A DNA stretch of 64,000 nt from an uncultured Alphaproteobacteria bacterium (GCA_937126915.1 CAKZLM010000083.1:1185-65184), one strand, 5' to 3'. Counted from the first letter of the stretch, positions 44,341 to 46,852 are shown. The notes: generated from the letters alone by a model not told the origin. Program-made: numbers and translations.

Positions 44341-45714
44341 ATGCGTCTGTTTGCTGTCATTTTATGTGCGGTCTTATCCATGGGCTTTCAGGATCAGGAT
44401 CACCAAAAGCCAGAACAAGGGTCTGAAGTTAGTGGAAAATGTGATTCATCCATCATCGCGCGGTTACCCAAACGAGTGCTGCCAACTGAAAAGCTATGCC
44501 GATTGATTAATCAAAACTTACAGGAAAACCCAGATGGCAATGCCCCCGTTGCACCCGATTATGAAGGAACAATGTGGCGCACCAGCGAAGACTGGTTTTT
44601 CAATGTTTTTTTCCTCAACAATCAATTGTTTGAGGTTTTGTCCACTGAGGATCATAAAGTTTATGATGATGCTTTTATCAAAAGAAACTTGGTGTTGTTG
44701 GATCAAGACCCTGAAAAGAAGATGCGGTTACTCTATGTTAAATCGCCCGCTTTTGATTTTCGGGTTGCGTTGATAACTCCCCATAAAATGCCGATTACGG
44801 GCCGTCAAGGGATGATGTACCAAGAATGTATCATGAATTTGAAGGAAGAGGACATTGAGGAAGGATTGTACCTGAAAAGTGATCAGTATGTTAGGGAGTA
44901 TTACCAAAACCTTTTGATACAGGCAGGGGATGCTTTAAATACTGAGGAGGGTGTAAGGGAGTATTGTATTCCCTATTTGACGGAGGATGGCAATTATAGA
45001 ATTATAGCTACAATGCAAGCCTATTATCCTGTTTCAGAAGAACCTTTTGAGATGCCTGTTGCTGTTGAGGGTGAAGTCCATCCTTGTGGCCCAAGAATGA
45101 CCAAATTTTACCCAGAACATGCACCTATTCAGCCCCGGTTATGCGAATACCTGGCAACCCTTCCAGAGGAAGAAAGGAAAAACAACAGCCCCAAAAGCGA
45201 GTTATTGAAAAACACCATATGGCAGCCTAATGGTGATCGTTTTCAATATAGACATCTTTATTTGGTTGATAATGTTTTGGTGACATTCAATGATAAACCT
45301 ACCTCAGGTCATACTGGGCGTATGGATCATTTTCAACGGCTTGTCTTATTAGAAGAAGACGTCGAGAATGATATGGCCTTATTTCATGTGAGGGAACCAA
45401 AGGGAATTCGCCACTGGAATGAGGTAGTTTTGCTACTGAGACAAGAAACATATTTTGGTGATATGATTTTGTTATATTCTTATTGTCGCATTTATAATGA
45501 CGAAAGTGCGATCGATAATAGAGACCCAGATGAAAAAATAAGATCAGCTTACAAGGCTTATGTTGAAAGGTCGTGGATGGCGGTTAAAGAAGATAACCGC
45601 CATCCAACAGACTTTTGCATATTAAGTGAACCTGACTTGGCACGCAACAAATACGAATTTGGGGGTAGTAGGTTAAATTATAAGAAATTTCGATCTATCA
45701 ACCCCATGCAATAA
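44341..45714 (+). CDS. secreted protein of unknown family with an internal two-fold duplication
   Basis: GGGAGG lies 5 nt before the ATG at 44341. It has a signal peptide MRLFAVILCAVLSMGF. The two halves align (LCRLI../LCEYL.., TMWR../TIWQ.., NLVLLDQDPEKKMRLLYVKSP / RLVLLEEDVENDMALFHVREP, ..YQECI/..SYCRI, ..REYCI/..TDFCI). The gene is AT-rich. Confidence 0.6.
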   Translation: MRLFAVILCAVLSMGFQDQDHQKPEQGSEVSGKCDSSIIARLPKRVLPTEKLCRLINQNLQENPDGNAPVAPDYEGTMWRTSEDWFFNVFFLNNQLFEVLSTEDHKVYDDAFIKRNLVLLDQDPEKKMRLLYVKSPAFDFRVALITPHKMPITGRQGMMYQECIMNLKEEDIEEGLYLKSDQYVREYYQNLLIQAGDALNTEEGVREYCIPYLTEDGNYRIIATMQAYYPVSEEPFEMPVAVEGEVHPCGPRMTKFYPEHAPIQPRLCEYLATLPEEERKNNSPKSELLKNTIWQPNGDRFQYRHLYLVDNVLVTFNDKPTSGHTGRMDHFQRLVLLEEDVENDMALFHVREPKGIRHWNEVVLLLRQETYFGDMILLYSYCRIYNDESAIDNRDPDEKIRSAYKAYVERSWMAVKEDNRHPTDFCILSEPDLARNKYEFGGSRLNYKKFRSINPMQ

Positions 45715-45715
45715 A

Positions 45716-46852
45716 CTAATATTTATAACGGGCAAGAAGTGCGGATGGTGCCGCCACCCTTTTAACAGTTTTTAAATCAGCTTGAATTTGTAAGGCTTCT
45801 TTACGGCACTCTGGGTCTGTTGATAAATAATAAGGTTCCACTGAAAGCTTTAGAAGATCTTTCACATGTTTGTTTCTATTTTGTGAAACATCCCTTCTGC
45901 TAGATTCTTCTCCTGCAGTATAAAAATCTCGGTAGGCGAGTGCTTGCTTAAACTTTGGCCATGATATTTTACCGGTTGCTTTGCCATTTTCATTATGCAC
46001 AAATCTGAATTTTCCAATGCCAATGTTATAAATCAAATCTGCAATGGCCATTTGCACTGCTGGTGGATAGGTTTGAAAATCGGGTAAGTCTTGCGTCACC
46101 CTTTTTAAAACCTCGGTTTGGGTGTGATGCCGTGCGTATTTTTTACTATCGTCAAGGGATAACGAAAGAGGCACGCTTTCATAAGCGTCAGCAGAAAAAT
46201 TATAACGATTAATTTCCCCAGCCTCATGCAGGGATTGTATTTTTTCTTCATTTAAATGAGGCCCAAACTCTTCATCATGTTCCGAAACATTCAAATCAGA
46301 ATTTATTTCTTTTAGTTGGACAAAAACACTCTCAAACTGCGCAAGTGTGACATTTGGTTTTCCTTGATAGAGGAACATATATCCCTCATTTTGCAGTTTC
46401 GTAAAATGCTCAGGCGATGAGATTAGAATGCCTGCGCCAATGGTGACATTGCCGTTTGAATCAAGATAAGGGTGTTTAATGTAGCCTTCAAAATCTTCAC
46501 TAATTAACTTATCTATAAACTCATCCATTGGGAAGGTATGTGTGCCCATGTTTTTGCGGCCAATGGGGTAAATAAGTTTGCCGTCTAGCCCTAAGACCGC
46601 TAGGCCTGTATCTTTTTCCACAAGGATACGATCTGAGCTTTCAGGGTCATTGATGGTGTCAAATTTCTTTTGAGTGATCATCTTGGTTATAAAGCTGGTT
46701 TGATCTTTTGCCATTTGATCTAACATTTTTCGAGTGTCTGGGCTGCTTTGCCTTGCTAGGCATGCCTTCATGTCTTTGTTTTCTTGGAATTTAAGGCCAA
46801 GGTTAGAGAGGTTGTTGCGTAAAGCAACGGCGTTTAATCTAACGGTGAGCAT
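45716..46852 (-). CDS. T4-lysozyme-like (GH24) muramidase with an N-terminal extension and a central insert, no signal peptide
   Basis: DFEGYIKHPYLDSNGNVTIGAG reproduces the T4L E-x8-D-x5-T / TIG.G spacing. The C-lobe reads PPAVQMAIADLIYNIG ... WPKF.QAL..RDF. The start at 46852 has AAGGAAG 7 nt upstream, and the extra 16 codons in the track ORF cover a terminator hairpin. Confidence 0.72.
   Translation of the reverse strand: MLTVRLNAVALRNNLSNLGLKFQENKDMKACLARQSSPDTRKMLDQMAKDQTSFITKMITQKKFDTINDPESSDRILVEKDTGLAVLGLDGKLIYPIGRKNMGTHTFPMDEFIDKLISEDFEGYIKHPYLDSNGNVTIGAGILISSPEHFTKLQNEGYMFLYQGKPNVTLAQFESVFVQLKEINSDLNVSEHDEEFGPHLNEEKIQSLHEAGEINRYNFSADAYESVPLSLSLDDSKKYARHHTQTEVLKRVTQDLPDFQTYPPAVQMAIADLIYNIGIGKFRFVHNENGKATGKISWPKFKQALAYRDFYTAGEESSRRDVSQNRNKHVKDLLKLSVEPYYLSTDPECRKEALQIQADLKTVKRVAAPSALLARYKY

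Follow-up and report, generated by a model that had tools for sequence, protein, structure and literature searches.

A convergent lysozyme-like gene and exported partner gene in an alphaproteobacterial islet: a candidate muramidase toxin with a periplasmic immunity protein

Two convergent genes form an AT-rich islet between fprA and groES

We analysed a 64,000-nt stretch of DNA from an uncultured Alphaproteobacteria bacterium (GCA_937126915.1, CAKZLM010000083.1:1185-65184; hereafter the window), in which an islet of two genes encodes a lysozyme-like protein (LL) and an exported partner. The partner gene (44341-45714, plus strand, 457 aa) starts at an ATG preceded by GGGAGG, and the LL gene (45716-46852, minus strand, 378 aa) starts at an ATG preceded by AAGGAAG. 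The two genes converge (junction at 45712-45718), with the partner stop codon TAA at 45712-45714, a single intervening nucleotide, and CTA at 45716-45718, the complement of the LL stop codon TAG. An earlier note made from the sequence alone had given both open reading frames (ORFs), their coordinates and strands and the 1-nt distance between the convergent stops, all of which were confirmed, the last by reading the TAA and CTA positions. The ATG start of LL is backed by homologues that start with MLTP...; a longer form starting from TTG at 46900 was considered and ruled out, because homologues begin at the ATG-encoded MLT.

The islet has a G+C content of 40.4%, compared with 46.6±1.8% in same-size segments elsewhere (z = -3.4), and is the AT-richest 2.5 kb of the window. 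The G+C content at third codon positions is 0.40 and 0.36 for the two islet genes, versus ~0.44 for other genes. The foreign-looking composition described in the earlier note is therefore real in a windowed calculation, but the range of 30-38% given for 60-nt lines was overstated, being true of about half of them (mean 40.3% G+C; 49% of lines at or below 38%). Among the window ORFs scanned, which are a part of all window ORFs, we found no phage, holin or type VI secretion system (T6SS) genes, as the note had also claimed, and the 564-nt gap upstream of LL contains no holin or lysis ORF. The remaining ORFs scanned are ordinary housekeeping genes. The islet is flanked by fprA and groES and does not lie in a phage lysis cassette. 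No direct repeats bounding it were found, nor any recognisable integration scar.

LL combines a T4-type lysozyme body with a folded N-terminal domain

LL is composed of an uncharacterised N-terminal domain that is predicted to be folded (N-domain, residues 1-112) and begins with the motif MLTVRLNAVAL, a catalytic domain (residues ~113-340) carrying E122, D131 and T137, and a conserved C-terminal tail (residues 341-378, EPYYLSTDP...) modelled as a beta-hairpin. The E-x8-D-x5-T arrangement of E122/D131/T137 has the same spacing as E11/D20/T26 of T4 lysozyme, as noted earlier, and is invariant in a 16-member family alignment. The family N terminus is also conserved in this alignment, reading MLTPKLSxxGLxxxLxK in relatives and MLTVRLNAVALRNNLSNL in the window protein, and both an internal block (AGWANDP..LVxKGTGxRILxxDG) and the C-terminal tail (ExFFISTDP...) are kept across the 16 members.

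An AlphaFold model generated from the family alignment had a mean predicted local distance difference test (pLDDT) score of 87 and a predicted template modelling (TM) score of 0.83. It shows confident helices at residues 8-13, 22-33 and 38-60, a small sheet at 64-87 and then a two-lobe lysozyme body, in which an insert at 190-220 is of low confidence and the C terminus forms a beta-hairpin. Foldseek matched the body to glycoside hydrolase family 24 (GH24) endolysins (8app, AbLys1), pesticin (4arp, 4aqn), P22 lysozyme and T4 lysozyme, with a probability of 1.00, an E value of 4e-4 for 8app and target-normalised TM scores of 0.5-0.68; pesticin ranked third. These alignments cover ~240 columns, and none of them covers the N-domain. 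The lysozyme fold suspected from the sequence is thus supported by the model, as is the insert between the lobes (residues ~190-220), which is lineage-specific and missing from most relatives.

Sequence-based searches were less informative. Pfam Phage_lysozyme (PF00959) scored LL at 20.6 bits against a cut-off of 22.3 bits, matching model positions 2-34 (the N-lobe) only, and PHROGs returned a weak endolysin match (E = 4e-6), while no match was found by sequence among solved structures. The N-domain profile had no relative in Pfam or the PDB. PADLOC gave no match for the islet genes and NCBIfam nothing meaningful. The hidden Markov model (HMM) searches that the earlier note had put forward for both proteins therefore yielded a sub-threshold Phage_lysozyme match and no Pesticin match for LL, and nothing for the partner.

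LL has no N-terminal hydrophobic segment (maximum Kyte-Doolittle (KD) hydropathy of 0.59 within the first 45 aa, as compared with 2.21 for the partner), in agreement with the absence of a signal peptide proposed previously. A resemblance of its first residues, MLTVRLNA, to the TonB box of colicin M had also been suggested. This idea found no support: the family motif MLTPKLSxxGL has a Pro where the L4P substitution in colicin M abolishes function/uptake. It is opposed as well by the folded, helical N terminus, since residues 1-60 form three predicted helices (pLDDT 88-97) with a combined Gly, Ser, Pro and Asn fraction (G+S+P+N) of 0.18, versus 0.42-0.54 for translocation domains.

The partner is an exported protein made of two related units

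The partner carries a Sec-type signal (MRLFAVILCAVLSMGF; KD 2.21) and is an internal tandem duplication, its N- and C-terminal halves matching each other with E = 4e-7. The two units (residues ~29-236 and 237-457) are ~210 aa each, with four conserved Cys at matching positions. All eight Cys outside the signal peptide are conserved in a 79%-identical orthologue, and the description of the partner as a signal-peptide protein with conserved Cys positions was accordingly upheld on both counts. No relatives were detected in Pfam, NCBIfam, PADLOC or the PDB. Membership of the window partner in family A, one of the partner families found beside other LL genes, was tried as a remote relationship and dropped (hhalign E = 0.02-0.06, probability of at most 2%); the window units and family A have a Trp and two Cys in the same order, which is not significant (E ~0.02). 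We regard the partner as a candidate immunity protein of the periplasm, in which the two copies of an immunity array would be joined in one chain.

The pair is constrained and fills a variable slot in a conserved core region

The partner orthologue is encoded on a 4.1-kb metagenomic contig (L001), where the order is an fprA-like gene, the partner and a convergent LL, with the same 1-nt junction as in the window. Comparison of the two loci gave dN/dS ratios of 0.28 for the partner, 0.25 for LL and 0.07 for fprA. Both islet genes are real and constrained, and are evolving faster at the protein level than the core. The corresponding dS values were 0.42 and 0.63 for the partner/LL pair and 1.17 for fprA, and the next gene was saturated; since dS of the pair lies below that of its flanks, the pair was probably gained or exchanged later than the divergence of the hosts.

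Among named genomes, that of Iodidimonas muriae (L002) is the closest, with 84% identity in GroEL and 54% in fprA. I. muriae keeps groEL-groES-[slot]-fprA-..-msrB-DUF3667, and its slot holds two unrelated genes. The order DUF3667-msrB-(variable gene)-fprA-(variable slot)-groES-groEL is common to the window (40246-42024 and 42038-44220) and Iodidimonas, which together with the GroEL and fprA identities indicates that the source organism is a deep relative of the Iodidimonadales. The LL pair thus occupies a variable slot in a conserved groESL-fprA-msrB synteny.

LL genes are rare and nearly always converge on an exported partner

An exhaustive HMMER search with LL against 1.84 billion representatives retrieved 343 relatives at E <= 1e-3 and 35 at E <= 1e-10. 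The N-domain was present in 40 of the 152 best representatives, and each of these 40 also had the catalytic domain. A profile scan with the family alignment detected the LL family in 1 of 185,579 species-representative genomes. Assemblies with an LL gene include GCA_022574255.1 and GCA_023143585.1. With the window protein alone, nothing was found in the species-representative (GTDB) contigs. A scan of the metagenome collection gave no match, and word-indexed homology searches returned only the query itself and one orthologue.

Genomic contexts were retrieved for 14 N-domain LL genes on 11 distinct contigs, some of them 47-134 kb long. At the 3' end of LL, a convergent, unannotated signal-peptide gene was found in 13 of the 14 cases, separated by 1-122 nt or overlapping (binomial p = 9e-4; 0.011 when counted by lineage), and the co-occurrence and convergence anticipated for the pair therefore extend across genomes, the 1-nt junction in L001 included. 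Every partner carries an export signal (two of lipoprotein type), and no LL protein does. One contig (L089) has two LL copies, accompanied by two and three partner paralogues (one frameshifted), another (L109) has two divergent LL copies, one of them with a three-partner array (one frameshifted), and a third (L086) has two partners; the LL-partner unit is duplicated in L089 and L109. Such paralogue arrays are typical of immunity genes. Partner families A (which includes a 184-aa partner in L089), B and D are related to one another (hhalign probability 95-97%), while families C, E, F and G and the window type have no demonstrable kinship to A/B/D or to each other. Searches of solved structures with two partner families gave no relative for either.

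The flanks of LL loci consist of housekeeping or metabolic genes. At one locus (L111/L112, 10001-11871), LL and a co-directional 207-aa exported partner lie between rbfA and truB, in an otherwise conserved nusA-infB-rbfA-truB-rpsO-pnp region, an insertion which shows that the gene pair is mobile as a cassette and can enter the surroundings of core operons. None of the ~11 LL contigs contains vgrG, hcp, PAAR, adaptor or sheath genes, and no T6SS, holin or other phage genes were found in LL loci apart from tail-tube genes in L109. There, a full-length Phage_tail_2 tail-tube gene (8979-9401, minus strand; E = 1e-26) and a frameshifted paralogue (9573-9990, plus strand) each lie 10-18 nt upstream of one of the divergent LL genes, and a TonB_C gene adjoins; this arrangement was seen in one locus only.

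These tube genes raise an alternative in which LL is the cargo of an apparatus encoded elsewhere (a T6SS, an extracellular contractile injection system or a particle resembling a gene transfer agent (GTA) or a tailocin), with the N-domain and its MLTPKLS start as a loading signal and with the toxin-immunity logic kept. Their position directly before each LL is reminiscent of Hcp-effector-immunity islands, the protein has no signal peptide, and its folded and conserved N-domain resembles loading or marker domains; moreover, lysozyme-type and pesticin-domain T6SS effectors with periplasmic immunity are known from published work. However, the tube gene occurs in a single locus, and no structural or adaptor gene of an apparatus was present even on the longest contigs. 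Unlike markers of the MIX/FIX/WHIX type, the N-domain is found on no other toxin (40 of 40 with this lysozyme), and longer relatives of the lysozyme warhead carry LysM, PG_binding_1 or M23 modules, never VgrG, PAAR or Rhs. T6SS effector-immunity pairs are usually co-directional operons, whereas 13 of the 14 pairs studied here converge. We therefore consider loading into such an apparatus rather unlikely.

The recurrence of the pair also bears on a reading in which the pairing is meaningless and LL is a decaying prophage lysozyme remnant beside an unrelated secreted protein. In its favour, both proteins are near-orphans in word-indexed searches, and the Phage_lysozyme match of LL is below threshold (20.6 versus 22.3 bits). 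Against this, neither ORF is disrupted and purifying selection acts on both (dN/dS 0.25-0.28), a second organism has the pair with an identical 1-nt junction, the residues of the catalytic triad do not vary, 14 genes show the pairing, and there are no other phage genes nearby. The pair in L001, the invariant triad and the dN/dS ratios already largely refute this reading, to which we give very little weight.

Hairpins and promoter-like elements at the islet

A terminator-like hairpin on the LL strand (AACCGCC...GGCGGTT followed by T8; 46878-46912, minus strand) has its last T 26 nt before the LL ATG, and only the AAGGAAG Shine-Dalgarno sequence lies between the two. Further upstream, in tandem, is a second terminator-like hairpin (GCCCA...TGGGC followed by T7; 46946-46977, minus strand). 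L086 and L111 are arranged alike, their terminator preceding the LL start by 14-15 nt. Terminators ending 14-26 nt before the start would imply that LL is expressed by read-through or antitermination. A riboswitch or small RNA reading of the tandem terminators had no support from Rfam, which returned nothing significant in the islet or the LL leader, and no LexA-type box was recognised by eye upstream of LL.

Upstream of the LL genes in L082 and L084 and of both copies in L089, a sigma70-like promoter (TTGACA...TATTGT/TATTAT) is overlapped by a palindrome-like element, (C/A)ACCTATTTG(G/A)T(G/T), with a second related site, ATCACnCCATTTTGGTT, ~20 nt downstream of it; a looser version is present in L110. 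The window counterpart of this element lies at 46886-46905, and within the hairpin at 46878-46912 is CCACCTATTGAAGGT, a sequence similar to the CACCTATTTGGTG element that precedes other LL genes. The palindrome-like element is a candidate operator for a regulator common to LL genes of different organisms.

For the partner, the best match to a sigma70-like promoter is on the plus strand at 44214-44241 (CTGACA-16-TAAAAT, 10 of 12 positions, a consensus match only), ~100 nt upstream of the ATG. A perfect 13-bp inverted repeat with a 7-nt loop (45574-45606) begins no gene-free stretch but lies within the coding sequence of the partner, at a distance of 110 nt beyond the stop codon of LL. The hairpin is kept in L001 (3320-3352) by a compensatory change from T.A to G.C, with two amino acid replacements (M to R and H to P), which suggests that RNA or DNA structure is under selection where the two genes converge. 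The LL transcript may end at this hairpin, as its 3' end or terminator stem.

Three further elements were observed on the groES side. A 15-nt tandem repeat, ATGGGATTTTGGCCA, is present at 47081-47150 (4.7 copies, 90% matches), in the intergenic region between the upstream terminators of LL and the groES promoter. A canonical CIRCE element (TTAGCACTC-N9-GAGTGCTAA; 47319-47345) precedes groES (47417), as expected for HrcA-controlled groESL, and a sigma70-like promoter match was found at 47372-47401 in the groES upstream region.

The same lysozyme subfamily occurs on plasmids and in phages

A tblastn search of plasmids with LL returned two records, in both of which the match was confined to the catalytic domain. 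On the Salmonella plasmid p151-7k (L116, NZ_CP065120), a 6.8-kb ColE1-like mobilizable plasmid whose replicon cluster is shared with pPCP1, the lysozyme gene (1381-2142, plus strand) encodes a 253-aa 'hypothetical protein' (WP_308416267; Sal_253) and converges, at a distance of 63 nt, on a gene for a 209-aa signal-peptide protein (2206-2835, minus strand). The first 65 residues of the 253-aa protein are Gly-rich and of disorder type (G+S+P+N 0.54), and residues 9-20, YGDGTGWSSERG, match the crystallographically defined TolB box of colicin A (9-KGDGTGWSSERG-20; PMC2821528) at 11 of 12 positions. Its lysozyme part scores 126 bits with the LL family HMM, and both proteins have the C-lobe motif (K/R)DWxTAAxESxR..RN. 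The gene was found on 12 small plasmids from E. coli, E. albertii, Klebsiella, Shigella and Salmonella and is annotated nowhere. Judged from its sequence, the plasmid pair resembles a lysozyme colicin that depends on Tol, has not been described and is distinct from colicin Z, together with the gene for its immunity protein; identity with colicin Z was ruled out because the sizes differ and the colicin Z immunity protein has no signal peptide.

A Pseudoalteromonas replicon encodes a 290-aa protein (Pal_290) in which a PG_binding-like N terminus is joined to the lysozyme domain (154 bits). Its gene is followed by those of two paralogous exported proteins (Pal_240/241), which are homologous to the partner in L114 (E = 6e-12), and partner family G thus accompanies the lysozyme subfamily with different N-modules, in L114/L115 and as Pal_240/241. 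Both Sal_253 and Pal_290 pass the Pfam Phage_lysozyme threshold, at 37-39 bits. One lysozyme subfamily is therefore found with three different N-modules, each time with an exported partner. That one partner family tracks the catalytic domain across architectures is what neutralisation of this domain by the partner would predict.

Proteins from IMG/VR viral contigs scored 98-137 bits with the family catalytic HMM, at 29-35% identity. These viral relatives are 173-270 aa long and are encoded co-directionally among structural genes, without an N-domain, tail or convergent exported partner. No full-length relatives were found in the viral contigs, and tblastn of LL against 50,697 GenBank phages gave nothing. 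Relatives of the catalytic domain do therefore occur as short phage lysozymes, so that an outcome named in the earlier note as refuting its proposal is half borne out, but N-domain, tail and convergent partner are absent from all of them.

The subfamily shared with phage lysozymes invites a reading in which LL, as a domesticated endolysin, serves programmed self-lysis (release of a GTA, a tailocin, DNA or public goods) or wall remodelling, while the partner inhibits or regulates it in the periplasm and so sets the threshold. The tube genes adjoining LL in L109 would suit such a role, and the tandem upstream terminators suggest very low, conditional expression. But no holin, pinholin, signal-anchor-release signal or spanin is found beside any LL gene, which would leave LL without a route to its own wall. 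The diverged partner arrays and duplicated LL-partner units are hard to explain for a housekeeping regulator, and the extreme patchiness of the family (1 in 185,579 species representatives, in variable slots) and the elevated dN/dS ratio likewise speak against it. We consider a self-lysis or remodelling function improbable.

A muramidase toxin with a periplasmic immunity protein is the best explanation

We propose, with a probability of about 0.62, that LL and its partner are a muramidase toxin and a periplasmic immunity protein, the latter a fused double unit, used between competing bacteria. According to this model, LL would be a muramidase that cleaves peptidoglycan. Its synthesis would take place in the cytoplasm, where the enzyme would be harmless for lack of substrate, and it would act once inside the periplasm of a competitor. 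The partner would be exported to the producer's own periplasm and there neutralise LL arriving from sibling cells, with two diverged immunity units fused in the window protein. The toxin gene appears to be tightly insulated by the two terminators directly upstream of it, and the partner would have its own promoter, which matches the logic of colicins acting on the wall or the membrane. Toxicity, binding of the partner to the toxin and the delivery route of LL are what we infer from these data. As to delivery, colicin-like release and uptake via the N-domain are tentatively preferred to a secretion or tail-like apparatus, on the basis of the gene layout, the lack of apparatus genes in any locus and the colicin A-type plasmid relative; as a share of the whole, we hold this route to be somewhat less than an even chance.

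Several observations weigh against this proposal. The designation of the partner as an immunity protein is based on position and export, not on homology, and by sequence the partners belong to at least six families without demonstrable common ancestry. The AlphaFold model of the window partner, built from two sequences, had a pLDDT of 34 and is unusable. The contigs with LL genes are phylogenetically non-independent, and in L111/L112 the exported partner is co-directional with LL. The catalytic domain is equally close to viral-contig endolysins and to the colicin-like plasmid protein, and no release or lysis gene or secretion apparatus was found near LL in any locus. Finally, the N-domain is folded, fairly conserved and exclusive to this enzyme (40 of 40), which fits an integral module of the enzyme better than a shuffled domain for receptor binding or translocation, and no TonB or Tol box was recognisable in it.

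A more specific form of the toxin-immunity proposal is doubtful and we consider it more likely wrong than right. In this form, the N-domain and the C-terminal hairpin tail would be a hitherto unknown module that carries the lysozyme across the outer membrane without a disordered Ton/Tol tail, and the family would be a new class of chromosomal 'lysozyme bacteriocins' with at least six unrelated exported immunity families, the immunity protein being fused and double-headed here. The outer membranes crossed would be those of Alphaproteobacteria and related marine bacteria; a variant with uptake or loading via a tail-tube-like carrier is hinted at by L109.

Few wall-degrading protein toxins with periplasmic immunity have been studied (pesticin, colicin Z and the T6SS proteins Tge and VgrG3), almost all of them in Gammaproteobacteria. 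The family described here is unannotated, with no Pfam domain for the N-module or for any partner, recurs in marine and environmental metagenomes, and joins a lysozyme of phage type with a new N-terminal module and with exported partners that diversify fast. If the toxin-immunity proposal is correct, it would extend lysozyme-type bacteriocins to Alphaproteobacteria, yield a collection of naturally occurring lysozyme inhibitors of new fold, and offer a compact, folded candidate import module for lysin-based antibacterials against Gram-negative bacteria, comparable to the chimera of pesticin and T4 lysozyme. A by-product of the analysis is the apparently undescribed colicin A-type lysozyme colicin on small enterobacterial plasmids.

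Comparison with known systems

The earlier note had likened the islet to pesticin and its immunity protein Pim, from Yersinia pestis plasmid pPCP1. The layout of such a module stood: like pesticin, LL is a muramidase of T4-lysozyme fold without a signal peptide and with an N-terminal non-catalytic region, its partner is predicted to be periplasmic as Pim is, and the genes are tail to tail (pim on the plus and pst on the minus strand, 34 nt apart on pPCP1), with no lysis gene in either case. Family-wide, the opposite-strand exported partner (13 of 14) and the paralogue arrays agree with this. Kinship with pesticin did not stand, and assignment of LL to the pesticin family was rejected. LL has no match to PF16754, the family catalytic HMM misses pesticin while scoring T4 lysozyme at 44 bits, and hhalign aligned the catalytic lobe only (E = 0.011, probability 3.8%). 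The N-domain of LL is helical and folded, whereas pesticin has a Gly/Ser/Pro-rich T domain and a FyuA-binding R domain (G+S+P+N of 0.42 for pesticin residues 1-40 versus 0.18 for the LL N terminus), and LL has no disordered tail with a TonB box. Pim, at 131-141 aa, is unrelated to the 457-aa duplicated partner (hhalign E = 0.35). In addition, pesticin and Pim are plasmid-borne, while the window module is chromosomal and alphaproteobacterial.

The lysozyme of the ColE1-type plasmid shares with LL the GH24 subfamily (126 bits) and a convergent signal-peptide partner. It differs in its disordered 65-aa N terminus with a TolB box, its unrelated 209-aa partner, its location on a plasmid and its host range in Enterobacterales. 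It is a structural precedent known from sequence, not an experimental one.

Colicin M with Cmi and colicin Z with Czi resemble the LL pair in being directed at the wall and in having opposite-strand immunity genes with their own promoter. Opposite-strand immunity genes, which the earlier note had called established for colicin M and the pore-forming colicins, are found in experimentally established bacteriocins that target peptidoglycan: cmi and czi lie opposite their colicin genes, and pim and pst converge. The colicin Z paper describes this polarity as usual for colicins whose target is the membrane or the wall. Colicin M, like LL, has no lysis gene, and Cmi acts in the periplasm. By contrast, the enzymology differs, colicin M being a lipid II phosphatase and colicin Z having no assigned fold, both colicins have a defined TonB- or CjrB-dependent uptake and no homology to either window protein, and Czi, unlike the window partner, has no signal peptide.

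The T6SS muramidase effectors (Tge/Tgi, VgrG3/TsiV3 and the pesticin-domain proteins VgrG3cp/TssI2) likewise combine a periplasm-acting peptidoglycan hydrolase with exported immunity, and orphan immunity arrays are common among them. They are encoded in or next to vgrG/hcp clusters or fused to VgrG, whereas LL loci contain none of these, and no T6SS marker (MIX, FIX, RIX, WHIX, PAAR or Rhs) and no linkage to vgrG, hcp or adaptor genes was found in the scanned window ORFs or the related loci. GH24 phage endolysins (PF00959) have the fold and the E-x8-D-x5-T spacing in common with LL, with similarity at the subfamily level, but not the N-domain, the tail or the convergent exported partner. No description of the LL family was found in the searchable literature. 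The kind of system to which the pair would belong, a peptidoglycan hydrolase toxin with periplasmic immunity, is already known; the novelty lies in the N-module, in the families to which the partners belong, in the fusion within the immunity protein, in the host range and in the form of a chromosomal islet.

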